Part shown: positions 657-50,965 of the stretch, piece by piece
How the letters are laid out: each line of letters starts with the position of its first letter
How positions within the stretch are numbered: the stretch's first letter is position 1
Assembly: GCA_003157485.1 (NCBI GenBank)
Contig: PMJQ01000203.1
Location: 35,415-99,414 of the forward strand
DNA from: Ignavibacteriota bacterium
GTDB taxonomy: Bacteria > Bacteroidota > Ignavibacteria > UBA10030 > UBA6906
Reading direction: 5' to 3'
Length of the DNA: 64,000 nucleotides
Notes under the pieces: model-generated
What the model saw: only the letters and a program-made list of their open reading frames with translations
Told to the model about the DNA's origin: nothing
Databases searched by the model: none
Made by a program: the position numbers and the translations under genes

Positions 657-706
657 TTGAGCTCCTTTGCGCATCAGTAAACCCATGACTGCTATCTACG
701 ACACGG

Positions 707-842
707 CTCATACAGGCGCATGATGCCAGTCCCGGGGATGGGGTAACGAGAGAAAAGCAAACCTCTACGTAGGACAGAAAGCGGAAGGACGGAATCGGAC
801 GCGGGCTATCTTCAACATAACCAACAACTAACCCAATAGCAA
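707..842 (-). promoter_or_regulatory. B element copy 1: conserved promoter plus 5' leader upstream of 372-656
   Basis: About 114/138 identical to 8613-8750 by hand alignment, including a 28/28 identical core (763-790). On the minus strand it starts TTGCTA-N17-TATGTT and ends about 50 nt before the ATG at 656. Confidence 0.6.
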
Positions 843-966
843 TCGGTCGAATCCAGTCACACGAAGGTAGATCTCAACGCCCTCAGACGACGGATGACTC
901 GTCTCACCGCAAACGCGGGGCAGATTCGGTTGCCCGGCGGCTCGAATACCCTAACACTTGCGCACT

Positions 967-4378: not shown

Positions 4379-5668
4379 ATGAAATCTGACGAAGACGTGG
4401 GTAGGGGCGCGGCGGGGAAGCGCCGAAGGAGGGATCTCCAGGCGTCTGCCGTCGAGCTCCTGAAATCCCTCAACCTCATCGTCGGCCTTGACCAGCTTCT
4501 GGAAATCCTGTGTGCCCGGCTGAAGGAAATATTCGGCGCCGGGACCGTGACGATCTCTCTCTTCGATCCCATCACTCGTCGCTATGCCGGGATGATGGCC
4601 CGCGGGTCCGACGCCCCGAATGCCGCGTTGTTCGGTTTCTTCGAGTTTAATCCCCTCGTCAAATGGCTGAACGTCAACCAGTCCCTCCTGAACGTGCGGA
4701 CAGACAGGGGTGTCTTTGACTACCTCTCGCCCGAAGAGAAGCTTGTACTTGAGTCCCACCGGGTTGCGCTGGTTGTCCCTCTTATCGCGCTGAACAGGCT
4801 TACCGGCATCCTCTTCTTATCCGACAGGGAAGACGGAACCGCGTACTCGCGCGCCGAAATCGAGAACCTTCTCATGGTTGCCGGCCAGGCTTCACTTGCC
4901 GTGGAAAACGCGGTGATGACGCAGTTTCAGGAGGAGAGGCTCAAGAAACTCTTCCACGCGGACAAGCTGGCCACCGTCGGCGAGCTCGCGGCGGGCGCCG
5001 CCCACGAAATCCGCAATCCCCTCACGTCAATCCGCAGCACAGTTCAGTTCCTGAAGAAGGACCTCCCGGCTGAGAAGCACGGCTACGTGGATGGCGTCAT
5101 CGAGGAGGTGGACAGGATCGACGGGATCATCAAGGGGCTCCTCTCTCTCAGCAAGTCGTCGGAATTACAGCTGAGCAGGGTCGACCTCCGCGAGGCGCTC
5201 CAGCAGACGCTCCTGCTTCTGGACCCCGAGATGAAAAGGAACGGGGTTGCCGTCAAACAGGAGATAACGATCGTCGATCCGACTGTGGAAGCGGACCAGG
5301 CCCAGGTCAAACAGGTATTCCTCAACGTGCTTCTGAACAGCATACAGGCGATGCCTCAGGGGGGCGCTATTACCGTCCATATGGCCGACCGCCCCGACGG
5401 CAAGAGAGAAGAGTCTCTCGATTCCGTCCGCGTCACGCTTTCCGACACGGGCCCCGGGATTCCGGAGGAAGCGATGCGAAGAGTGTTTGACCCGTTTTAC
5501 ACGACAAAAGAGAACGGAACGGGGCTCGGGCTTTCGATCACGTACGGCATCGTCCAGGGGCACGGGGGTGAAATTGACATCGTGAGCAAGACTGACCCCT
5601 CTTCACACGGGACCAGCGTGACAATCCGTATGCCGAGGAAAGCTAAAAAGCTGACGATTGGCCATTAG
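4379..5668 (+). CDS. cytoplasmic GAF-domain sensor histidine kinase
   Basis: H-box AAHEIRNPLTSIRS, N/G boxes (LNSIQAM, DTGPGI, GTGLGLSI), no TM segment, GAF-like N-terminal half. Confidence 0.85.
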   Translation: MKSDEDVGRGAAGKRRRRDLQASAVELLKSLNLIVGLDQLLEILCARLKEIFGAGTVTISLFDPITRRYAGMMARGSDAPNAALFGFFEFNPLVKWLNVNQSLLNVRTDRGVFDYLSPEEKLVLESHRVALVVPLIALNRLTGILFLSDREDGTAYSRAEIENLLMVAGQASLAVENAVMTQFQEERLKKLFHADKLATVGELAAGAAHEIRNPLTSIRSTVQFLKKDLPAEKHGYVDGVIEEVDRIDGIIKGLLSLSKSSELQLSRVDLREALQQTLLLLDPEMKRNGVAVKQEITIVDPTVEADQAQVKQVFLNVLLNSIQAMPQGGAITVHMADRPDGKREESLDSVRVTLSDTGPGIPEEAMRRVFDPFYTTKENGTGLGLSITYGIVQGHGGEIDIVSKTDPSSHGTSVTIRMPRKAKKLTIGH

Positions 5669-8394: not shown

Positions 8395-8571
8395 ATGAAT
8401 ACTGTGACGATAGTCTGTCCGCATTGTTACAATGAAGGCGACCACCCGTTTTACCTGAGGCCGACCCCTTTCAAGCTCAGCGGGTCAAATCGGGTTCTCT
8501 GCGAAAACTGTTTCAAGAAGTTCAGGGTTTACTTCCAGGAGGGGAGAATCAGCAACGTGGCGAGAGTGTAA
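8395..8571 (+). CDS. small zinc-ribbon protein (58 aa)
   Basis: MNTVTIVCPHCYNEG...VLCENCFKKF has two CxxC pairs. GGGGGA lies 8 nt upstream of the ATG. The gene sits in lower-GC sequence. Confidence 0.5.
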   Translation: MNTVTIVCPHCYNEGDHPFYLRPTPFKLSGSNRVLCENCFKKFRVYFQEGRISNVARV

Positions 8572-8612
8572 GTCTTCACTGCCTGATCAGGAAAAACTCT
8601 TTCGATTGTTTC

Positions 8613-8750
8613 TTGCTATTGGGTCATTTGTTCGTTAGCTTGAACACAGCCCCCCGTCTGACACTGTCCTTCCGCTTTCTGTCCTACGTAGAGCTTTGCA
8701 TTTCTCCTGTTGCCCCATCCTCGGGAAATTGCATCACGCGCCTGAATGAG
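8613..8750 (+). promoter_or_regulatory. B element copy 2: conserved promoter plus 5' leader upstream of 8786-9127
   Basis: TTGCTA(8613-8618)-N17-TAGCTT(8636-8641), identical 28-nt core at 8666-8693, conserved hairpin 8697-8733 (UGCA-UUUCUC / GGGAAA-U-UGCA) with the loop GUUGCCCCAUCC conserved in copy 1. Confidence 0.6.
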
Positions 8751-8785
8751 GACAAATCGCTTTCCAGGAAGTGGAGAATGTGCGC

Positions 8786-9153: not shown

Positions 9154-9200
9154 GCGTCCTCAACCAGTTCCGGCCCCTCCTGGGACCATCGACGCGGGTG
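9154..9200 (-). repeat. A element copy 4 (inverted relative to copies 1-3)
   Basis: The reverse complement reads CACCCGCGTCGATGGTCCCAGGAGGGGCCGGAACTGGTTGAGGACGC. Confidence 0.7.
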
Positions 9201-9306
9201 CCCGGGGGCTGTTGTGTGTAAGGCTCTACCCACCCCCGTGTAACGGGTTACCCGACTTTCCTCCCTCACCCCTTTCATTTCTATAATTTCCGCAATTATC
9301 CCCAAA

Positions 9307-10156: not shown

Positions 10157-11719
10157 ATGATCGGTCATATCGTTCGGAAGGAACTGCTTGTTAACCTCCA
10201 GAGTATGAGGTTCCTCGTCGGGCTTGTTGTCAGCGCACTCATGATGGGGATCGTGGGCTATGTCCTCGTCGAGGATTATGCGACAAGGATGCAGAAGTAC
10301 ATTGCAGATGTGGCGGAACACCGTGCAGCGCTTGCGGAGACGAAAGTGTATTCGATGGTTGCAGTCGATGTTGACATCCCTCCTTCGCCGCTCTCGGTCT
10401 TCAGCAGGGGCTCGCAGAACCTGCCGACTACCCTGCATGTCTCCCCTTTCCATGTCCCATCGCTCATCGATGAAGGAGGGGCGAGCGCTTCCATAGGACT
10501 CAACGGGACGAGCAGTCATGCGGACAATCCGCTCCTGAGGATGTTCAGCTCCATTGATCTTGGATTCGTCATCAGCACAATCCTGAGCCTGTTCGCCGTG
10601 CTGCTGGTGTTCGATAGTTTCAGCGGGGAACGGGAGCAGGGGACGTTGAAGCTGCTCCTGACTTCATCCGCGGGCAGGGTTCACCTCCTGGCCGGAAAGT
10701 ATGTTGGCGCACTCGTGACGCTGGCGATACCGCTGACTGTCGGGTTCCTCGAGGTGATGATCCTCTGGGCCCTTCACCCCTCCCTCTCGTTTGACGCGCA
10801 AGTGTGGGCGGGTGTGGGACTCGTGTATTGTGCTTCCCTTCTTTTTCTCTCCAGCTTTCTTGCGATGGCTCTTTTCCTCTCCCTGTATGCGACGGAGTCC
10901 TCATCCTGTCTTATGTACCTGCTCCTGGCCTGGGTGACAGTATCCGTTGTCATCCCGGCAGGAGGCGGATACGTAGCGGAGTATTTCCGTCCGAAGGGGC
11001 TCCGTGAGATCATGTTGAGCGAAGCGAAACAGGCGAGTGCCCACCTCAGCAACGAGCTGGAGCGTCTGAATTACCGGCAAAAAGGCGGCTGGAACAACGC
11101 ATGGACGGACTGGTTCGGAGCGGAATCCATTTTGGGTTTGACTCAGCAAGAAGCCAATAACAGGCTCGCATACAACCAGAAGGTTGTCCCGATGAAGTTG
11201 CAGTACGCTGAAGACCGGTATCGCGTCGTCGAATCGTATGCGCAGGGACTCCTGAGCTGGAGCCGGACCAGGGAGGACCTGATCCGGCCATCCCTCTGCG
11301 TCGACTACGGCAATGTGGTGCAGGCCCTGGCGGGAACGGACCTCAATACCTTTGACGATCTTGTTCAAAAGTCAAGACTCTACCGTGACGCGATGATGGC
11401 GTACCTCCGACCGAAGTCAGAAACGAGCCTGTGGTTCACCCGGATATTTGAATACCCTGACATGGAGCCCACGGAGAAGAATCAACAGTACTGGCAGAGT
11501 CTTATCGAGAAAGAGGGTCAACGGGCCGTCGAGAAGATCATGAGCTGGGACAGGGTGTCGTCTCTCGACCTGACGTCCATGCCCCCACCTTCGGTGAATA
11601 TGCGCGGCGTGACCGAGCGGGCGCTCCATGCGCTCCCGGATGGGATCCTGCTCTTCGCGGCCAGCGTTGTCTTCATCGGGCTCTCGATGATCCGGGTGCG
11701 TCACTATCCCTTGAACTAG
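10157..11719 (+). CDS. ABC-2 family permease paralog 1 (520 aa, large extra domains)
   Basis: N-terminus MIGHIVRKELLVNLQSMRF, FSGEREQGTLKLLL, multiple TMs, VVIPAGG, long helical insert, terminal TM. Confidence 0.8.
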   Translation: MIGHIVRKELLVNLQSMRFLVGLVVSALMMGIVGYVLVEDYATRMQKYIADVAEHRAALAETKVYSMVAVDVDIPPSPLSVFSRGSQNLPTTLHVSPFHVPSLIDEGGASASIGLNGTSSHADNPLLRMFSSIDLGFVISTILSLFAVLLVFDSFSGEREQGTLKLLLTSSAGRVHLLAGKYVGALVTLAIPLTVGFLEVMILWALHPSLSFDAQVWAGVGLVYCASLLFLSSFLAMALFLSLYATESSSCLMYLLLAWVTVSVVIPAGGGYVAEYFRPKGLREIMLSEAKQASAHLSNELERLNYRQKGGWNNAWTDWFGAESILGLTQQEANNRLAYNQKVVPMKLQYAEDRYRVVESYAQGLLSWSRTREDLIRPSLCVDYGNVVQALAGTDLNTFDDLVQKSRLYRDAMMAYLRPKSETSLWFTRIFEYPDMEPTEKNQQYWQSLIEKEGQRAVEKIMSWDRVSSLDLTSMPPPSVNMRGVTERALHALPDGILLFAASVVFIGLSMIRVRHYPLN

Positions 11720-13175: not shown

Positions 13176-14426
13176 ATGAGAGACATCGCAAGGAAAGAAT
13201 TACTCGAGAATCTGACAACGTACAGGTTCTCTATACTCACGGGGCTGATCTTCTCGATGATGCTCATAAGCATCATCGTCTCGTACGGGGATTACCATCT
13301 CCGCGTGGAGAATTACAACATACTCCGCCCGGGGCCGAAAGAAAGGGAGAAAGTCATACTCCCGCCGGAACCGCTCTCCATATTTGCCAGGGGGCTTGAT
13401 GCCAACGCGGGACGGCTCTACCAGCTCTCGTTCCGCGGGATCGATGTGCAGCCCAGTCAGCAGTCGATCAACCGGGTCTCGTCGCTCTTCAGCCTGCCGG
13501 ACATGCTCTTTGTCACGCGGGTCATACTCGCGCTCGCCGCACTCCTCTTTTCATTTGATGCGATTTGCGGCGAAAAGGAGCAGGGGACGTTGAAGCTCAT
13601 GCTTGCCGGCAGAACAAGGAGGGCGTCCGTCGTCCTCGGCAAGCTGGCCGGGAGATATCTGCTTGTGATCGTCCCTTTTGCGGTTCTCTTCATCCTCTCT
13701 GCGATCGTTGTGTCGCTCCTTCCGGATGTGCATGCCGGAACGGAATACTGGATCAGGCTCGCAATGATCCTCGCCGGGTCCGCTCTCTACGTTGCCTCGT
13801 TTATAGCGCTCGGGACGTTGATTTCTTCGGTCGTTCACAGAAGCGCGACCTCGATGATGGTCGCGCTCGCCTCCTGGGTCCTCCTTGTGTTTGTCGTCCC
13901 GAACATGGGGGCAACGGTGGCGCAGGCGATCGGGGACGTCCCTCCCGCCGACCGGGTCGAGATGAAGACGCGCCTGGCCGTCATTCAATCGATATTCGAA
14001 ACGCAGCAGTCGATGAAGAACGCGAAGCAGAGGGACTACAGCCGGATCATGAAGCAGATCCGGGAGGCCAACACCGGGATGTTCCAGACGTACAGGCCGG
14101 AGCTGAACCGGCTCATTTCGCTCACGAGGTCGATCGCCCGCTGCTCTCCCGCCGGAGCGCTTGAATTTCTCTCAACGGAGCTCTCCAACACCGGGCTCAG
14201 CAGGGATCTCGGGATCAAGGATGCGATCTGGATGTTCGTGGAAAGGAATACCAACAGGTTCGCCGGGCTTGAAAAAGGGGAGGTGGAGCAGTTCGAATAC
14301 CGCGCGGCCACTCCGGGAGAGCAGATCGCCGGCGTCGCGCTCCCGGATGCTCTTCTGTTGCTTATCATGCCGGCGGTGCTCGTTGCGCTGGCCGTGGGAT
14401 CATTCCTGCGCTACGATCCCCGGTAA
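13176..14426 (+). CDS. ABC-2 family permease paralog 3
   Basis: The ORF opens at GTG 13143. The ATG at 13176 gives MRDIARKELLENLTTYRF, colinear with its paralogs. Also CGEKEQGTLKLML, VFVVPNMGA, ending FLRYDPR. Confidence 0.8.
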   Translation: MRDIARKELLENLTTYRFSILTGLIFSMMLISIIVSYGDYHLRVENYNILRPGPKEREKVILPPEPLSIFARGLDANAGRLYQLSFRGIDVQPSQQSINRVSSLFSLPDMLFVTRVILALAALLFSFDAICGEKEQGTLKLMLAGRTRRASVVLGKLAGRYLLVIVPFAVLFILSAIVVSLLPDVHAGTEYWIRLAMILAGSALYVASFIALGTLISSVVHRSATSMMVALASWVLLVFVVPNMGATVAQAIGDVPPADRVEMKTRLAVIQSIFETQQSMKNAKQRDYSRIMKQIREANTGMFQTYRPELNRLISLTRSIARCSPAGALEFLSTELSNTGLSRDLGIKDAIWMFVERNTNRFAGLEKGEVEQFEYRAATPGEQIAGVALPDALLLLIMPAVLVALAVGSFLRYDPR

Positions 14427-14475
14427 CGGACGCTGCCCCCGGTAGGCCGGCAACCGGAATGAAGGAGGAAACCAC

Positions 14476-15897
14476 ATGCTTTCGCATCTGATACGCAAAG
14501 AGCTCCGCGAGAATTTCCTGAACATCCGGTTCATTGCGGCCTGCGGCGTCTCCCTCGTGCTCATGATCTCCTCGATCGCCGTCCTCACGCGGAGCCATGA
14601 AGAGCAGGTGCGGGATTACCAGGACAGGGTGCGCCAGCAGGACGAGTTCATCGATAGGTACGGGCACCTCAACCGGCTGGGGTGGATGTCCGCGCTGACA
14701 CGGGGCCCGTCTCAGCTCCAGGCCCTCGTTCTGGGTGTCGACAGGGAGGCCCATCAGGACAATTTCGTAAGCAACCCCGTCCCCGTGCTTCTCTCCCGGT
14801 TGGACTTTGCCGCAATTGTTACGATCATCATGAGCCTTGTCGCCATTCTCTTTTCGTACAATGCGGTAAGCGGCGAACGCGAGGCGGGGCTCCTGAGGCA
14901 GATACTCGCATCGGGGATTTCCCGGAATGCGCTCCTGGCCGGCAAATTCGCGGGGGGTCTCGTCAGCCTTCTCATCCCTTTCACGGTGAGCGTCCTTGCC
15001 GGCATGCTGTTCCTTGCGCTCAATTCCTCGCTCCAGCTCCAGACGGCGGATTTCTCCGTGTTCGCGCTCCTTCTCGCCGCCTCCTGGCTCTACGTCTCCG
15101 TGTTCCACTCCATCGGGATATTCTTCTCCACCCGTTCACAGACCTCCGGTGAGGCGATACTGAAGTCCCTGTTCGCCTGGGTGATTCTCGTCCTCGTGAT
15201 TCCGAACGCCGCCCCCTTCCTGGCGGCCCAGTTCTACCCGATTCCCTCTGCGACAAGGCTGGCTCAGGACAGATACATGATCACGGACAGGGAACGTGAC
15301 GCCATCGTTATGCAGCGCAGGAACGCCATGCTGGAAGGGAGCTTTGCCGACCTCAAGGGGATCGTCGATCTTTCCCCGAACGAGATCCAGGAACGGCTGA
15401 AATCGGACCCCCGGATCGGTGAACGATACAGGCAGTACGCGAAAGAGTATGACCAGATCATTAACATCACGAACAAAGAGCAGGGGGAGAAGTACGGGAA
15501 GATCGAAGAGGTCTTCCTGCAGCGCTCGCGCGTTCAGGAGAAGCTCGCGGCCATCCTGACGTCCGCCTCCCCGCTCTCGAACTTCGTGTTTGTCGCGACT
15601 GACCTGACAGAGACGGGGCTCGCGGCGGATGATCACTGGGAGCGGGTGTCGGGCGAATACAGTAATGCGCTCTCCGGCTATGCGGACGTGCAATACCGGA
15701 AGGCGGTGGAGAAGGACCCGACGTTCGATTACAACGACTACCTGGACCTCCGGGCGCGTCCCCGGTTCCAGTACCGGCCCGCGGGGCTGATGGAAAGGGC
15801 GGCCCCCGACCTGCTTCAGTGGGGCGTGCTGATCATGTTCAATCTTATATTCTTCGCGGCGGCATTCGTGAGTTTTCAACGCTATGACGTCCGTTAA
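14476..15897 (+). CDS. ABC-2 family permease paralog 4
   Basis: GGAGGAAACCAC-ATG, MLSHLIRKELRENFLNIRF, SGEREAGLLRQIL, VLVIPNAAP, ending FQRYDVR. Confidence 0.8.
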   Translation: MLSHLIRKELRENFLNIRFIAACGVSLVLMISSIAVLTRSHEEQVRDYQDRVRQQDEFIDRYGHLNRLGWMSALTRGPSQLQALVLGVDREAHQDNFVSNPVPVLLSRLDFAAIVTIIMSLVAILFSYNAVSGEREAGLLRQILASGISRNALLAGKFAGGLVSLLIPFTVSVLAGMLFLALNSSLQLQTADFSVFALLLAASWLYVSVFHSIGIFFSTRSQTSGEAILKSLFAWVILVLVIPNAAPFLAAQFYPIPSATRLAQDRYMITDRERDAIVMQRRNAMLEGSFADLKGIVDLSPNEIQERLKSDPRIGERYRQYAKEYDQIINITNKEQGEKYGKIEEVFLQRSRVQEKLAAILTSASPLSNFVFVATDLTETGLAADDHWERVSGEYSNALSGYADVQYRKAVEKDPTFDYNDYLDLRARPRFQYRPAGLMERAAPDLLQWGVLIMFNLIFFAAAFVSFQRYDVR

Positions 15898-15909
15898 CGG
15901 GGAGGTGTG

Positions 15910-17379
15910 ATGGGAAGACTTGTTGGCCTTGCGCTTGCTCTTGTGGTTGCCCACTTCGCGGCCGCTCAGATGCTCTATAACCCGAACGATGAGAGGTTCA
16001 AATCCCTGTACCTGGAGAAAACGCAGAGCGACTACAGGATGCAGAAACAGGACTTCCAGCGGCAGAAGCTCCTGCATGACAAGGGGTTGATCTCGGAACG
16101 GGATTACAGCCAGTCGGAAGCGTCATTCAAGGCGGCGCAGATCACGTACCAGCAGGCCATACTCTCCCTGGCGTTCGAGCAGCCGCACATCACTATCGAC
16201 AACGGCGTAAAATACCAGGGAAAAGACGGGAAGAAGCGGGTCCGGCTTACCCTGCGGAACACAACGGGGGGACTCATCGAGGGGAAGAAGATCGAGCTCG
16301 AGGATTTCGAGGGGATAAAGACGGACCGGATAGCGAACGTATACGTATCGCTCCTGAACGACACGAAAGCGATCGTCAGCAAGCCGTATGAGGCGAAGAT
16401 CGAAACGATGCCGTTTAACAGGCCCGTTGCGCTGGATTTCTTTCTCCTCCAGGACCTGGACAACGTGACGGTGAAATGCGTGTACGGCGATAAGACCGAC
16501 GAAAAGAAGATATTCCTCCAGAAGGACGAATCCGCGAACCGGGTGCTGATAAGTTCCGACCAGTTCTCCCAGGAAGCCGACCTCGGCGCAAGGGCGAACT
16601 ACAACCTCACGCTCGAGCTCTTTTCGAGCTCCGACAACGTCTACAAGCTGGACGTGTTTAACCTCCCCCGGCAGATTGCCTGCGACTTTCTGGAGGACCC
16701 GACAAACGCCCGGCTTTCCCAGGTCAAGTTCTCCCAGGACGTCAATTCACGGAAGATCGCGCTTGCGATCTACCTCCCCGACAGGTACGACAGCGCGTCG
16801 TTCATGATCGACGCGCCCATCGCATTTTACGCTGCGGCGATTCCGCGCGCCCAGGCGGAGAACGTGGCCGACAAGGAGAAGAAGTACACCGTGGCCGAGC
16901 TGGACCGGTTGAACATAAGCTACATCCGGCTCGAGCTCGTTCCGCGCGGCGTGGGGAGAATAGAGGTGAGGGCGGCGAATTTCTACCAGGAGCTGAAGCC
17001 CGGCGAGCGTGTGCAGATGAATCTGACGGTCTATAACGACGGCACAAGGCGGCTCGACAACATCAAGGTCCAGGCGGAATCGCCCCTCAACTGGACCTCA
17101 ACGATTCTCCCTGACCTCGTCCCGTCGCTTCTTCCCGGCAAGGAGGAGACCGTCTCAGTCACGATAATTCCGCCCGGTGACGTGAGCGTGGGGGATTACG
17201 AGACGACGATAAAAACTGAAGCGTTTGCGAGCAGCAGGAAAGTCGACTCGGAGGATAAGAAAATCCGGATCCACATTTACTCGAGCGCAAACGTATTCGG
17301 GACCGTGGCCCTGATCCTGCTTCTCGTGGGGATACTCGTGGGGGTCGTCGTCTTCGGCGTCCGGCTCAGCCGGAGATGA
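15910..17379 (+). CDS. membrane-anchored accessory protein: MFP/HlyD-like coiled-coil N-terminus plus NEW3/CARDB-like beta domain plus C-terminal TM
   Basis: Signal or anchor LVGLALALVVAHFAAAQ, coiled coil LISERDYSQSEASFKAAQITYQQAIL, NEW3-like VQMNLTVYNDGTRRLDNIKVQAESPLNWT...VSVGDYETTIK, C-terminal TM VALILLLVGILVGVVVFGV. Confidence 0.65.
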   Translation: MGRLVGLALALVVAHFAAAQMLYNPNDERFKSLYLEKTQSDYRMQKQDFQRQKLLHDKGLISERDYSQSEASFKAAQITYQQAILSLAFEQPHITIDNGVKYQGKDGKKRVRLTLRNTTGGLIEGKKIELEDFEGIKTDRIANVYVSLLNDTKAIVSKPYEAKIETMPFNRPVALDFFLLQDLDNVTVKCVYGDKTDEKKIFLQKDESANRVLISSDQFSQEADLGARANYNLTLELFSSSDNVYKLDVFNLPRQIACDFLEDPTNARLSQVKFSQDVNSRKIALAIYLPDRYDSASFMIDAPIAFYAAAIPRAQAENVADKEKKYTVAELDRLNISYIRLELVPRGVGRIEVRAANFYQELKPGERVQMNLTVYNDGTRRLDNIKVQAESPLNWTSTILPDLVPSLLPGKEETVSVTIIPPGDVSVGDYETTIKTEAFASSRKVDSEDKKIRIHIYSSANVFGTVALILLLVGILVGVVVFGVRLSRR

Positions 17380-20563: not shown

Positions 20564-23500
20564 CTATTTCAACAGAACGAGCTTCTTCGACGCGTGATAG
20601 TCTCCCGCGGTGATTGTATAGAAATATGCCCCGCTGGCCAGTCCCGAGGCGTTGAACGGCGCTTCATGGTACCCCGCATCTTCCTGCTCACTGACAAGCG
20701 TCGCCACTCGCTGGCCAAGCGTCGTGAAAACCTCCAGCGTGACGAATGCCTTCTGGGGGAGACCGTACTTTATCGTCGTAGAAGGATTGAATGGATTGGG
20801 ATAGCTCTGACTCAGCGAAAACTCGGTGGGGAATCCCTCCCCGGCGAGGCCGGAGGCGACGTCGACGGCAATGCCGTCGGAATACAGGAATGTCCCGTCG
20901 AGATTGAGCTGCTTGAGCCGGTAATAGACAGTTCCGGATCCCGGTGCCGCGTCGGTGTAACTGTAACGCTGCGACACCGTCGTTGTGCCGTGAGCGCCCA
21001 CGAAGCTTCCCTGGATCGACTGATATCCTCCGGCCTGCACTGCTGACTTCTGGATCTCGAAGCCGTATGCGTTTGTCTCGCTGAGTGTCGACCACTGAAT
21101 CAGCACGCCCCGTCCGCTGACATCCGTCCCCGTGAGCGAGGCAAGCTGTATCGGCAGCGGGGGCCCGGAGTTCTCCCACAAACCTCGTCCGTGCGTCGCG
21201 ATCCGCAGAACTCGCGTGCTCTGCTGAAATGCCATGTCAAAGACCGCCACGATGGGAAGACCCGATCCGAAAACATTCCAGGTCGCTCCTCCGTCCGTCG
21301 AGTTATACACCCCGATATCGGTTCCTGCATAGAGATTGCTTGAATTCGCAGGATCAACGACGAATGCGTTCACGGGGACATCGGGGAGGCCGCTGTTGAT
21401 CGATGCGATCAAAGGCGTTGTGCCGAGGTTCGTGACTTTCCAGACGTGTGATTGGGAAGTCGACGTCCCTCCCATGTACCCGCCGAGTGCGACGTATGCC
21501 GTGTTCTTGTTCTCCGGATCAAACGCGACGCGGCCGATGTATTTGTCCGGAATCACGCCCCCGCTCCCCGTGGGGTCCAGTGCCGTCATCGTTGAGGATC
21601 CGGATGTCGTGTAGAAGAGAGCCCCGTTCTCCAGTCCGACTACCCTGAAGTTGTCGTCCTGCGGCGACACGGCAATTGACGAGATGGGGATGTTCGTGGC
21701 AAGGGGCGCCTGGCTGACAACGGTTGTGTTTGTCCCTTTGTTCGTTGATCGGTACAGACGGTCCGTCCCGAAATACAACGTATTCGGGTTTCCCGGTCCG
21801 AGCGCCATGGGCGCGTAAAAGAGGACCGCGTCGGTGCAACCGATCCCGTTTGAGGCTCCGCCGCATCCGAGCACTGTCCAGAGCCCGTCTGAGGCCGAAG
21901 AAACGCTCGTGACCCGTGCGAATCCGACCAGACTCCCCGTCGCGTTGAAATAGGTATGGTACATCGTGACGTTGACAAGGTCAGTCCCCGCGTTCTGGTC
22001 GATCGCCGTGTACCCGCCGTCGCCGAAATCGATGCGGTTCCATGTTCCCAGGGGCGTGTACATGTTCGTCCCGTTGTCCTGCGTCCCGCCAATCGAGAAG
22101 TTGGGATCTGTCGGGTGAAGCGCGATGCTCTGGAACTGCGTGGCGTTGAACCCGGCAACGTTCTGGCTTGTCCAGGAATGTCCGCCGTCGGTCGATTTGA
22201 ATATGCCGCCGTCATTGCCGTGGTAGACGATCTGAGAGTTTGAGGGAGCCAGCATTATCGCGTGCGTGTCTGCATGAAGTCCGGAATCGAAATTCGTAAA
22301 TGAGTTTCCGCCGTTGACGGAAATCGCGTGCAACCTCGAGCAGGTCGAGGAGCTTGTCTGTCCGCCGATGTGAATCGTGTCGTTTGCAGTCGATGTTCCG
22401 GGAACGACCGCGATGGCGGTATTGTAAAAGCACTGCCCGCCGCAGAACCCGCCGCCTCCGGCGAGCTTGCCCGACCATGTGACCCCTGCGTCAGTCGAGA
22501 CTCTCAGTGCGCCCTCCTGTGTCGCATCGGAGCACCCGGTGCCTGATGATGCCTCGCCGGTCGCGGCATAGACGACTGTTGCCGCGCCCCGCGTGTAGAT
22601 TCCGAACGCGACACGTACTCCGGTCGTCGTTGTCCCGAGGACCTGGGTCTGCGTGAATGTCGGAGTCGCGGCGAGTGCATTGGTGGTGCGGTAGATTCCC
22701 CCGTCGACGCCCGTGCTCAGCCCGAATACGGCACAGACGATCGTGTCGGGATTTCCCGGTCCGAACACCATGTCGGTGACGTTCCTGTTCCCCGTATTGT
22801 CCGTCTCGCTTCCCGCGGTCGTGACCGTGAGCTTCGAGAACGTCACCGATGATGCGGCCGACGTTCCGTTTGTCGAGCGCCAGATCCCTCTCGGTCCCAG
22901 CGGCGGAAACGTTCCGCCCCCCGCGGCGTCGCAGCCCAGACCGATGGCGCCGGAGCCTGTGGCGACGAATATCGTAGCAGGGTCCACCGGGTGGACGAGG
23001 ATCTTGCTGATCGTTCGTCCGCCGAACGGGGTCGTTCCCGGGACGCCGCTGTACGGGGGGTTTATGGGTCCGACGAGGTTGGGCGAGGTGTCTGCGTTAT
23101 CGATGCGGTAGAGTCCCACTCCAGCGTAGCTGTCGCACGAAAAGTTCGCCTCCCCCGTCCCGATGTACAGGATTGTCGGGTTCGACGGGGCGAGAGCCAG
23201 TGCGCCGATCGCGAGAGATTGCGCCCCGTCGAATATCGGCGTCCAGTGGGCTCCCCCGTCTACTGTCCGGTACACTCCCCCCTGGGCTGTTCCGACGTAA
23301 ACGATATTTGGATTGGTGGGATGGATCGCAACGGCGGTCACTCTCCCGCTCACCGACAGCACGGATGTTTGCGTCTGTCCGTTCGGTATCGGGGCCGGCC
23401 CGAGCGGCGTCCACGCCGTGCTCGTCACCTTGGCGAGCGAACGGGCCGCGCTCCGTTGCATCTCGGTTATCGCTCTTACCCGGGGGTCGTACGGAAGATC

Positions 23501-48433: not shown

Positions 48434-50965
48434 ATGAATGCTCCGCGTCTTTCCTTCTCTTTCGCGCTTCTGATCGCACTGCTCTCCGAATGCGCATTCG
48501 CGCAGAACAATCTGCCTTTCGACCTCCAGGCATATGAGGCTTTTCTGGCAGGCCACAGGGACATGAGTTCGACGCAATTGCTGGCGCTGCACCCCTCCGG
48601 GGCATTCGTCGCGAAATCGCAGGTCGCGCCTGAAGCAATCAATGGTCTCCGGACCATCGACTCCAGCTTTTCGTTCACCCCCTTTGAACGGTCGCTCGTC
48701 GCGGACCACGGATTCATGGTGTCCGATCGCATCCGGTATAATTCGGTCGGAGACGCGGTCCTCGACATCTACCACCGCGACCTTCCCATCTTTGTTTCCT
48801 CCGACGCGATCCTTCACGCCGTTCATGCCTCGTACGATGCGATTCTCCGGGGGGCTGAAACAGGCCTCCTCGCGCCGAACCTTGATACGCTTCTGTCAGG
48901 ACTCAGGGCGCAATTGCCTGCCATGAACGTGGAATACGCCGCCGTTCCGGCCATGGCGCCAATGCTGCATGACATCGACATCTACCTCACGGTCGCATGC
49001 GCGCTGCTGGATGGTTCCGCGGCGCCGTATTTCCCCGAGGACGCGGCGGATGTGAGTACGCTGGAGAACCTTATTGCCGCTCAGCAGGCCGTGTCGTATC
49101 CCCTCTTTTCGTCGACCCCCCGGATTATCGATTTCAGCCAGTTCACGATCCGCGGCCACTACACCCTGTCAGTGAAGCTGGGCCAATACTTCCAGTCGAT
49201 GATGTGGCTCGGGAGGACGGAGCTTTACCTCCTGGGTCCGGCGGGCGTGTATCCGGCTCAGCAGCCCGCGGACATACAGCGGCAAACGGTCGACGCCGCC
49301 CTCCTTGTGGAGGCGATGGACCGCGCAGCCGCGTATTCCCGCCTGGGGGAGATTGATACGATAATATCCGCGTGCGTCGGGGAGTCGGACAACGTCACGA
49401 TTCCAAACATGAAATCCCTCCTGCAGGGTGTCAATATCGGAACTGCGAGTCAACTTCTCGATACGACCGTGCTCGCGGCGTTTCAGAACAACCTCAGGAA
49501 TCAGCCGTTCGCGTTCCAGCGGATCAATTCGCAGATTCTGCAAAGCTCCGATCCACTGACCCCCGGTCTGATACAGCCGGCCGCTTCCCTCCTGCTTCTG
49601 GGCCAGCGGTTCGTCGTCGACTCGTATGTCACCGGCAATGTCGTGTACGACAAGATAAACTATCAGGGGCACGCCGTGTGGAGGGCCCTCCCCTCGACGC
49701 TGGATGTGTTGTTCGCGCTTGGCAACGACGCCGCCGCCCAGTTGCTGGTCTCGGAGCTTGACAGGTACAACTACGCCTCGAACCTTGCCGCGGTCAGGTA
49801 CCTCATAGACGGGTACGATGCTTCATTCTGGCAGAGTTCGATTTTCAACGCGTGGCTCGGCATGATACGCGCATGCAACCCGCCGGCCGATCGATCCGCA
49901 CTCCCCGGGTTCATGACGACGGCTGCCTGGTGGCAGGAGAAGATGAACACGCAGCTTGCGTCGTGGGCGGAGCTCCGCCATGATAATCTCCTCTATGCGA
50001 AGCAGTCCTACACCGGCGTCGCAGGGTGTTCGTTCCCCGCGGGGTACGTCGAACCGATCCCGGCGCTCTATGACGCCGTGCGTGCTTTGGCGCAGGTCGG
50101 CAAAACCCGTCTCGTTCCGCTCCTGTCCGGCACCGGGGGGAATTGGTCGCTGGCATCGTATTTCTCTGGGCTTGACGGCGTCGCCGATACGCTTGGCACG
50201 ATCGCGCGTGAGGAGCTCGGCGGTACCTGTTTGACGACGGACCAGGTTGCGTTCCTGAAGCATATGATCTATATGGCAGACGGTGGCTGCATGCAGGCCC
50301 CCAACGGCTGGTACGTCAGGCTTTTCTACTTCGGGGCGGACCCTCTGAAAAAGGACTATCTCGTTGCCGACGTTCACACGTGCCCGGCCGACGCGTTCGG
50401 GAACCCTGTTGGCTGGGTCCTGCATGTCGGCACGGGTCCCGTCAATCTTGCGGTCGTGACGGCGCCATCCACCGATGGCGGACCGGCGGCATACGTCGGG
50501 CCCGTGATGAGCTACGGAGAACACGTGACGGACAACTTTCTCCGCTTGACGGACGCTCAGTGGAGCACGTCGTACGCGCTCTATGGGTCGTCCCGCCCTT
50601 CGTTAGTGAACCTGTATCTTGCCGACAGCATCGGCGGCTCGAGGGGAGCAGGGGCATCGCTCACCACAGGAATATCGGTAATAGACCCGGTTTCTCTCCC
50701 GCAGGAGACCGTCTTGTACCAGAATTATCCCAATCCGTTCAATCCCGCGACGCTCATCAAGTACGTCCTCCCCGGCCGCTCTGACGTCACGCTGACCGTC
50801 TATAATACGCTCGGTCAGCGGGTCGCCGTACTCGTCCATGAGACTCAGGAACGGGGATATCATCAGGCGTCGTTCGACGGGGGAGGCCTCTCGAGCGGTG
50901 TCTATTTCTACCGGCTCCAGGCAGGGAGCTCCGTCACGACGAAGCGCATGATTCTTTTGAAGTGA
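48434..50965 (+). CDS. large secreted protein (DUF3160-like) with T9SS CTD
   Basis: Signal peptide. FTIRGHYT...YFQSMMWLGR resembles what I recall of DUF3160. C-terminal YQNYPNPFNPATLIKYVLP...GVYFYRLQAGSSVTTKRMILLK. Confidence 0.65.
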   Translation: MNAPRLSFSFALLIALLSECAFAQNNLPFDLQAYEAFLAGHRDMSSTQLLALHPSGAFVAKSQVAPEAINGLRTIDSSFSFTPFERSLVADHGFMVSDRIRYNSVGDAVLDIYHRDLPIFVSSDAILHAVHASYDAILRGAETGLLAPNLDTLLSGLRAQLPAMNVEYAAVPAMAPMLHDIDIYLTVACALLDGSAAPYFPEDAADVSTLENLIAAQQAVSYPLFSSTPRIIDFSQFTIRGHYTLSVKLGQYFQSMMWLGRTELYLLGPAGVYPAQQPADIQRQTVDAALLVEAMDRAAAYSRLGEIDTIISACVGESDNVTIPNMKSLLQGVNIGTASQLLDTTVLAAFQNNLRNQPFAFQRINSQILQSSDPLTPGLIQPAASLLLLGQRFVVDSYVTGNVVYDKINYQGHAVWRALPSTLDVLFALGNDAAAQLLVSELDRYNYASNLAAVRYLIDGYDASFWQSSIFNAWLGMIRACNPPADRSALPGFMTTAAWWQEKMNTQLASWAELRHDNLLYAKQSYTGVAGCSFPAGYVEPIPALYDAVRALAQVGKTRLVPLLSGTGGNWSLASYFSGLDGVADTLGTIAREELGGTCLTTDQVAFLKHMIYMADGGCMQAPNGWYVRLFYFGADPLKKDYLVADVHTCPADAFGNPVGWVLHVGTGPVNLAVVTAPSTDGGPAAYVGPVMSYGEHVTDNFLRLTDAQWSTSYALYGSSRPSLVNLYLADSIGGSRGAGASLTTGISVIDPVSLPQETVLYQNYPNPFNPATLIKYVLPGRSDVTLTVYNTLGQRVAVLVHETQERGYHQASFDGGGLSSGVYFYRLQAGSSVTTKRMILLK

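Follow-up and report, generated by a model that had tools for sequence, protein, structure and literature searches.

Why do two small genes with nothing in common in sequence stand behind the same piece of non-coding DNA? The question arises in a stretch of 64,000 nt (the window), where a first-pass annotation had described a repeated element of about 137 nt, here called element B, ahead of two unalike open reading frames and had read it as a cis-regulatory leader RNA or an operator-bearing promoter. Comparison with related loci indicates that element B is very probably a conserved promoter-plus-leader inherited by duplication.

Two copies of element B and their promoter

Window positions 707-842 on the minus strand (copy A) and 8613-8750 on the plus strand (copy B) bear out the reported repeat: in MAFFT they align at ~83% identity with two 1-nt gaps and their flanks give no alignment to each other, and BLASTN places the copies at 82.6% identity over 138 columns. 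They lie in inverted orientation, 7.8 kb apart, and the open reading frames behind them, here P1 and P2, are indeed unalike; both are real genes for which homologues exist, and their sequences are unrelated. The 28-mer GTCCTTCCGCTTTCTGTCCTACGTAGAG is found at two places only, 763-790 (minus strand) and 8666-8693 (plus strand), with 0 matches in 100 shuffles. Its description as free of substitutions is true within this genome but not of the family, where about 8 of the 28 positions vary across 13 versions of the element. The palindrome CTACGTAG singled out inside it is likewise not a family trait, being replaced by CAACGTAG, CTTCGAAG, CTTCGTAG, CAACGGAG and CAACGTCG across versions; this variability, together with a lack of conserved DNA dyad symmetry in element B, rules it out as an operator.

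Table 1. Coordinates of the two copies of element B, their component parts and the genes behind them
Feature	Position	Strand	Basis
Copy A -35-like hexamer TTGCTA	837..842	-	sequence; first base of the conserved element
Copy A -10-like hexamer TATGTT	814..819	-	17 nt past the -35 hexamer
Copy A predicted transcription start	near 807	-	inferred
Copy A shared conserved leader, C/U-rich, G-poor, ending ..AUGAG	707..806	-	alignments; C 0.38, G 0.21
Copy A candidate hairpin GCUUUUCUC / 16-nt loop UCGUUACCCCAUCCCC / GGGACUGGC	725..758	-	family pairing compatibility
Copy A P1-proximal leader	657..706	-	homologous to the end of the L132 P2-P1 intergenic spacer
Copy A Shine-Dalgarno (SD) motif of P1, AAGGAG	662-667	-	sequence
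Copy A deletion junction TGAG/CCGTGTC	between 707 and 706	-	two-block alignment to L132
P1 gene, 94 aa	372..656	-	homologues, AlphaFold2 model, Foldseek
Copy B -35-like hexamer TTGCTA	8613..8618	+	sequence; homology with other species' P2 loci starts here
Copy B -10-like hexamer TAGCTT	8636..8641	+	alignment of versions
Copy B predicted transcription start	near 8648	+	inferred
Copy B shared conserved leader	8649..8750	+	GUCC boxes at 10-/15-nt spacing, UCCUUCC, AUUUCUC, CCCCAUCC
Copy B candidate hairpin GCAUUUCUC / 16-nt loop / GGGAAAUUGC	8698..8732	+	folding, family pairing
Copy B P2-specific leader part, purine-rich	8751..8785	+	kept in all P2-linked versions
Copy B SD motif of P2, GGAG	8773-8776	+	sequence
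P2 gene, 113 aa	8786..9127	+	homologues, predicted model

Both copies open at a -35-like hexamer, as had been noted, followed after 17 nt by a -10-like hexamer (Table 1). Across the family the -35 position reads TTGCTA or TTGCGA in 12 of the 13 versions (TTGCGA in L046; TAGCTA in L135, the exception), the -10 position reads TAnnTT in all 13, and 12 versions have a spacer of 17 nt, against 18 nt in L043. With copy B as the query, homology to the window starts at the T of TTGCTA (position 364) in eight loci and three bases earlier, at 361, in two, and the homology block of the P2 loci extends to the P2 stop codon. Hexamers spaced 17 +/- 1 nt and conserved across orthologues are thus present as in a sigma-70 / sigma-A promoter, and from its sequence element B appears to carry a sigma-70-like promoter of the form TTGCTA-17-TAnnTT. 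The Bacteroidetes promoter consensus consists of a -33 motif, TTTG, and a -7 motif, TAnnTTTG, with which the TAnnTT of element B is compatible (PMC7366714). An invariant GCTATTGGGTC box overlaps the -35 hexamer, and the 13-nt block TTGCTATTGGGTC is nearly invariant, beyond what a -35 hexamer needs. A by-eye reading for a sigma-54 or ECF promoter found no conserved GG-N10-GC or AAC-N16-CGT. In 6 of 12 versions a short TCGAY box precedes the -35 hexamer by 4-8 nt, as in GGATTCGACCGA-TTGCTA and CTTTCGATTGTTTC-TTGCTA (window 843-860 and 8595-8612; L132 ~530-549; equivalents in L035, L044 and L021); it could be residual homology or an upstream site.

Distribution of the element and history of the operon

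The 13 distinct versions come from the window and related contigs (designated by L numbers) of a narrow clade. Eight further loci with P2 homologues at 66-86% amino-acid identity bring the P2-linked versions, copy B included, to nine at species level, and element B lies directly upstream of P2 in every locus examined (L035/36, L037/38, L039/40/45, L041/42, L043, L044, L132-134 and L135). The gene neighbourhoods of these loci are unlike one another, except in the closely related L039-L042 group. Element B is also found 5' of P1 in three lineages: besides the P1 of the window, it precedes a P1 homologue in L046/47, and in L021/22 it is followed by an AhpC/TSA-type redoxin gene and then, after 28 nt, by a P1 homologue. 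The L021 version has an intact promoter and the most diverged leader of all (62-72%); in this locus (L021 8477-10285) the redoxin behind the element is a secreted, 449-aa protein of AhpC/TSA type that stands in place of P2. Another close P1 homologue, in L024-26, has no element B in front of it.

The 64-kb window holds two copies, other loci hold one or two per locus set, and in 555 kb of sequence an nhmmer profile of element B detected neither another copy nor a partial one; every copy is in sense orientation and immediately 5' of a gene. Among species-representative genomes a 20-nt core of the element gave 0 matches and a two-block pattern gave 8, all of them chance hits in which the 12-mer alone matched. 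A metagenome scan with a pattern of the invariant skeleton added only L045-L047, a match in L048 being rejected as chance, and viral, phage and plasmid collections contained no true copy. An identity as a dispersed repeat, MITE or REP was set aside on the grounds of two copies in 64 kb, no terminal repeats and a fixed sense position before a gene. Exact matches of window proteins come from Stordalen Mire and other peat and permafrost assemblies, including MAG GCA_003158685.1, and proteins clustering with them at 90% identity or more bear the label 'Bacteroidota bacterium'. The element B operon family is lineage-specific and narrowly distributed among uncultured peat and permafrost Bacteroidota; the host lineage is a deep, uncultured branch of this phylum that is abundant in thawing permafrost.

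One of the related loci explains why the element precedes different genes. In L132-134 a single element B is followed by a P2 homologue and, 99 nt later, by a P1 homologue on the same strand, which in L132 is 94.7% identical to the P1 of the window. Two collinear blocks of copy A can be aligned with this locus. In the first, window 1046-707 corresponds to L132 345-686 through the upstream repeat, the spacer and element B, ending exactly at ..AATGAG; in the second, window 682-316 corresponds to L132 1131-1488 through the P1 ribosome-binding site, P1 and the downstream repeat. Between the blocks lie 24 nt in the window and 444 nt in L132, and the window junction TGAG/CCGTGTC has a counterpart, GGTGAGCCGTGTC, near the end of the L132 spacer. 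Copy A is thus collinear with a B-P2-P1 locus, interrupted solely where P2 is missing, and by this alignment it is a B-P2-P1 operon minus ~414 nt containing P2, cut at a TGAG microhomology. Copy B is B-P2 at a second site. The ancestral arrangement is B-P2-P1, and the window has two copies of element B because duplication of the operon was followed by the loss of a different gene from each copy. The L132 tandem and the two-block alignment therefore make the window copies paralogues of one operon leader, and P1 and P2, taken earlier for unrelated cargo, are former operon partners. In L035 the upstream flank is kept as in copy A, P2 is present and P1 has been lost.

A neighbour-joining tree of element B unites copy A with L046, L132 and L035 in a group that leaves copy B out; the duplication therefore predates these species and is old. 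The tandem in L132-134 undoes the main argument of the annotation, which had taken one element before different cargo as the signal of a modular regulon: sharing by unrelated genes, which had looked like a regulon signal, has an ordinary evolutionary explanation. The annotation had also named a case that would speak against it, a recent segmental duplication whose coding parts were later replaced. The findings come near that case, in that the copies are paralogues and P2 was deleted from copy A, but the duplication is old and the element is conserved for function. The B-P2 locus of L035 is embedded among IS110, IS21 and Mu-type transposase genes (4506-5469, 10618-11034 and 13500-16545), and its element is a mosaic, with an upstream flank like that of copy A and with B and P2 closest to copy B; this suggests that recombination may have taken place between B copies.

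Conservation of the leader and how it may be read

Across seven P2-linked species, mean pairwise nucleotide identity is 0.80 in the transcribed leader and 0.74 in the promoter, compared with 0.79, 0.81 and 0.64 at P2 codon positions 1, 2 and 3; for the same species pairs, element B is 73-91% identical in nucleotides, exceeding P2 at 56-86% in amino acids. In P2-linked copies conservation is almost unbroken from about +8 to the start codon, with short variable patches only. Near-continuous conservation at the level of non-synonymous positions is strong evidence for function along the whole leader, which, judged from these comparisons, is under purifying selection as strong as at non-synonymous codon positions. 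The sharp start of homology at the -35 hexamer, this selection and the lack of an Rfam family agree with the earlier view of a functional non-coding unit made up of promoter and leader. A coding explanation was discarded: a 17-codon upstream frame beginning with TTG, a potential leader peptide, is found in 8 of the 13 versions, with CTG or TGG at the start in the other five; it is frameshifted in copy A, and variable columns fall by phase as 21, 25 and 20, with no third-position bias. A small open reading frame in element B was ruled out on both strands.

The first ~80 nt of the predicted transcript have a C content of 0.37-0.42 and a G content of 0.18-0.21 in most versions and are 60-70% pyrimidine; the L039 and L041 leaders are less C-rich than the others. 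A direct repeat of CCGTCC at 10-nt spacing is followed 15 nt further by a third GTCC (CCGTCC-N4-CCGTCC-N9-GTCC), with variable flanks around the GTCC boxes, and the leader also contains the tracts UCCUUCC and AUUUCUC and an invariant CCCCAU. In P2-linked leaders two purine boxes follow, UGAGGAGAAGU and then GWGGAGAAGG, which is the SD motif.

Taken as a whole, element B is best explained, and probably so, as a promoter plus the first ~100 nt of a ~140-nt 5' leader whose sequence is read by a trans-acting factor. How it would be read is a more tentative matter. Our favoured mechanism, which we regard as possible but somewhat short of an even chance, is that constraint acts on base order and not on a fold, the leader serving as a single-stranded, pyrimidine-rich RNA platform. 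A trans-acting RNA-binding protein or small RNA would read the three GUCC boxes, UCCUUCC, AUUUCUC and CCCCAUCC, and would thereby govern translation or transcript elongation for the genes that follow (P2, P2-P1, P1 or AhpC/TSA-P1). Base order constrained without a fold, over the whole leader and not in islands, makes such an RNA platform the most economical reading.

The strongest competitor, though still rather unlikely, is a DNA operator array, in which a repressor or response regulator would bind CCGTCC-N4-CCGTCC-N9-GTCC as duplex past the start site, perhaps along with GCTATTGGGTC. The CCGTCC repeat with its 10-bp spacing and the third GTCC 15 bp on would suit such a regulator, as would the near-invariance of TTGCTATTGGGTC and the intact promoter block of L021, whose leader diverged most. 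Operators, however, would be expected as islands of 15-20 bp, and conservation here is almost continuous over ~93 nt; the GTCC boxes vary in their flanks, dyad symmetry is missing, and neither the GTCC array nor the GCTATTGGGTC box recurs in the 64-kb window.

A structured RNA (riboswitch, thermometer or SD switch) is improbable. On this reading the two GGAGAAG boxes would be base-paired to UCCUUCC and AUUUCUCU, keeping the ribosome-binding site shut in the absence of a signal. RNAalifold predicts exactly these pairings on full P2 leaders, and in the long-range pairing of C/U tracts with purine boxes 93% of cells pair, against 38-63% with the partner slid; one pair switches from A-U to U-A in three sequences, but 49 of 500 shuffles reach the same covariation score. 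The 117-column core has a consensus energy of -6.4 kcal/mol and full P2 leaders one of about -13.6 kcal/mol, with positive covariation terms (+0.46, +1.05 and +0.72) that give no support for a conserved fold in this low-diversity alignment, and folding energies are not clearly lower than those of dinucleotide shuffles (z-scores -0.66, 0.02, -1.70 and -0.03). The hairpin with a 16-nt loop that had been proposed fits most copies (89.8% of cells pair at 8698-8732 and 725-758, against 43-65% with the partner slid), but its stem is conserved and does not differ in a compensatory manner between copies: there are 0 compensatory changes, and uncompensated ones occur in close relatives. L135 and L040 likewise have changes that are not compensated. 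The annotation did not recognise element B as a known RNA, in keeping with 0 matches to Rfam 15 at the gathering threshold in the whole window; at E<=10 both copies give only chance-level scores of 9.8-14.5 bits against thresholds of 40-75 bits. Without covariation, unusual folding stability or an Rfam match, the idea of a cis-regulatory leader in the form of a structured RNA finds no support, although a structure could be missed because 13 narrow-clade versions give too little variation for covariation.

Occlusion of the ribosome-binding site can be judged separately. The SD motif occurs in about 40-50% of the organism's genes, unlike in Bacteroidia, which habitually do without it. Element B resembles SD-occluding thermometers (ROSE, fourU) and anti-SD leaders in its upstream pyrimidine tracts complementary to the SD motif, and in most P2 leaders the ribosome-binding site is predicted to be closed by such pairing. 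Among controls with a dinucleotide-shuffled element B, however, a fraction of 0.19-0.85 (P2 leaders) or 0.84-0.96 (P1 and AhpC leaders) had an SD at least as closed as the native one; where P1 or AhpC follows, the native SD is the more open of the two. Dinucleotide shuffling of element B leaves the SD no more accessible, and occlusion is therefore a by-product of composition; this control rules out specific SD occlusion and speaks against an RNA thermometer. Element B differs from ROSE and fourU in occluding no better than composition-matched shuffles and in having neither a compact hairpin nor an Rfam match, and from thermometers generally in its length, with ~100 nt conserved where a thermometer needs about 30.

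Less probable again is a Rho-dependent attenuator, in which the C-rich, unstructured first ~80 nt would act as a rut site and elongation would need translation or a masking factor. The leader resembles those of mgtA, corA and rho, being C-rich, G-poor and weakly structured over ~80 nt at the 5' end of the transcript, and its skew, (C-G)/78 = 0.18-0.19, falls in the top 2-3% of all 78-nt windows, although such a skew is not extreme and the L039 and L041 leaders are poorer in C. Because a rut site is marked by its composition and shows little sequence conservation, a Rho attenuator does not explain the base-by-base conservation of element B. An even more doubtful proposal makes element B a stand-alone or 5'-UTR-derived trans-acting small RNA whose C-rich seeds would act, like those of RsaE/RoxS, on ribosome-binding sites, and to which the genes behind it would be incidental; retention of the element whatever the next gene (P2, P1 or AhpC/TSA) and several unpaired C-rich motifs would fit, but there is no terminator or conserved 3' end, conservation in P2-linked copies runs on unbroken into the start codon, and the element always sits in sense directly before a gene. 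A non-functional repeat, whether mobile-element remnant or decaying recent segmental duplication, is scarcely credible despite the inverted copies, the IS elements around L035 and a REP-like repeat nearby (element A, below), because conservation of element B extends over at least 11 species-level versions and greatly exceeds that of synonymous sites, with one or two copies per locus set, no terminal repeats, no extra or partial copies in 555 kb and no phage, plasmid or viral matches, and because the tree makes the duplication old.

The preferred reading, a leader recognised by its sequence, has partial parallels. Cold-shock genes of the E. coli cspA family have long conserved 5' UTRs, with a 159-nt leader that contains a 'cold box'; these leaders precede homologous genes, sense temperature via alternative folds and act after transcription initiation. 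Element B is similarly long for a leader, lies before small-protein genes, is common to gene copies in one genome and is conserved in sequence, but it has no supported fold and no sequence similarity to cspA leaders, and the genes after it are mutually unrelated because of the operon history. In Bacteroides thetaiotaomicron, 5' UTRs of more than 100 nt have been proposed as platforms for small RNAs or RNA-binding proteins, and the small RNA GibS has a conserved single-stranded 5' region (PMC7366714). The median Bacteroides 5' UTR is 32 nt, which the predicted ~140-nt leader of element B far exceeds (PMC7366714). The long B. thetaiotaomicron leaders belong to the same phylum and follow the same promoter logic (-33 TTG and a -7 TAnnTT-like motif), but they have no sequence relationship to element B.

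Element B is a new, lineage-restricted conserved promoter with a long 5' leader, whose constraint is unusually strong and comes without a detectable fold. About 140 nt of non-coding DNA held as tightly as protein-coding positions, with no RNA fold to be detected, points to a regulator that reads sequence. The scope is narrow, a single operon family in a small clade.

The encoded proteins and neighbouring features

Element B ties together two proteins of unknown function and gives a handle for studying both; neither P1 nor P2 has a Pfam or NCBIfam family or a sequence match in the PDB. P1 has 1780 homologues and is 74-80% identical in MAGs of Chloroflexota, NC10 and Bacteroidota, a conservation unusual for an uncharacterised small protein. 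Its AlphaFold2 model (pLDDT 82.6) has Foldseek matches to ABM/LsrG-like folds, and the predicted fold of P1 is a dimeric alpha+beta barrel of ABM/LsrG type. P2 is a lineage-restricted orphan, with 23 homologues among 5.8 billion clusters and three to five clusters in a profile search of 1.84 billion representative proteins. Its predicted structure is an antiparallel coiled-coil hairpin of two helices (model pLDDT 89.3), for which PDB structures gave no significant match, and P2 evolves fast while its leader stays conserved.

A more speculative proposal joins the two halves of this locus: element B and P2 might be an autoregulatory pair, in which coiled-coil P2 would bind the unstructured B leader or its DNA and the duplicated element would have put P1 under P2 control in trans. 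We consider this unlikely. It would be compatible with the strict co-occurrence of element B and P2 and their equally narrow phyletic range, and also with retention of element B in the copy that lacks P2 in cis, P2 lying 7.8 kb away. If it were true, the B-P2 pair would represent a small regulator of a new type, working through recognition of a long single-stranded platform and not as a fold-based riboswitch.

A second dispersed intergenic repeat of ~50 nt, element A, with the core CTGGGACAATGGACGCGGGTGCGAGG, occurs in the window at 316-366, 1021-1075 and 2294-2339 on the minus strand and 9155-9207 on the plus strand, and elsewhere in L035 (6 copies in 17.6 kb), L024-26, L046/47 and L132-134. 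It lies right after the P1 and P2 stop codons and ~180 nt upstream of copy A. Most P2 loci in other species lack element A, which is therefore an independent dispersed repeat and was ruled out as a part of element B. Its consensus fold is weak (-5.8 kcal/mol), and it looks like a REP-type repeat.

Upstream of copy B, window 8395-8571 on the plus strand encodes a 58-aa open reading frame with two CxxC pairs and weak zinc-ribbon matches, which ends 41 nt before the element; it is a gene call in all assemblies of the window's species and in other species shows no linkage with P2. Among the window's coding sequences are several type IX secretion C-terminal domains, and the repeats at 1-63, 20756-20809 and 50720-50787 are the coding 3' ends of type IX sorting domains (..NPFNP..), their likeness being one of coding sequence.
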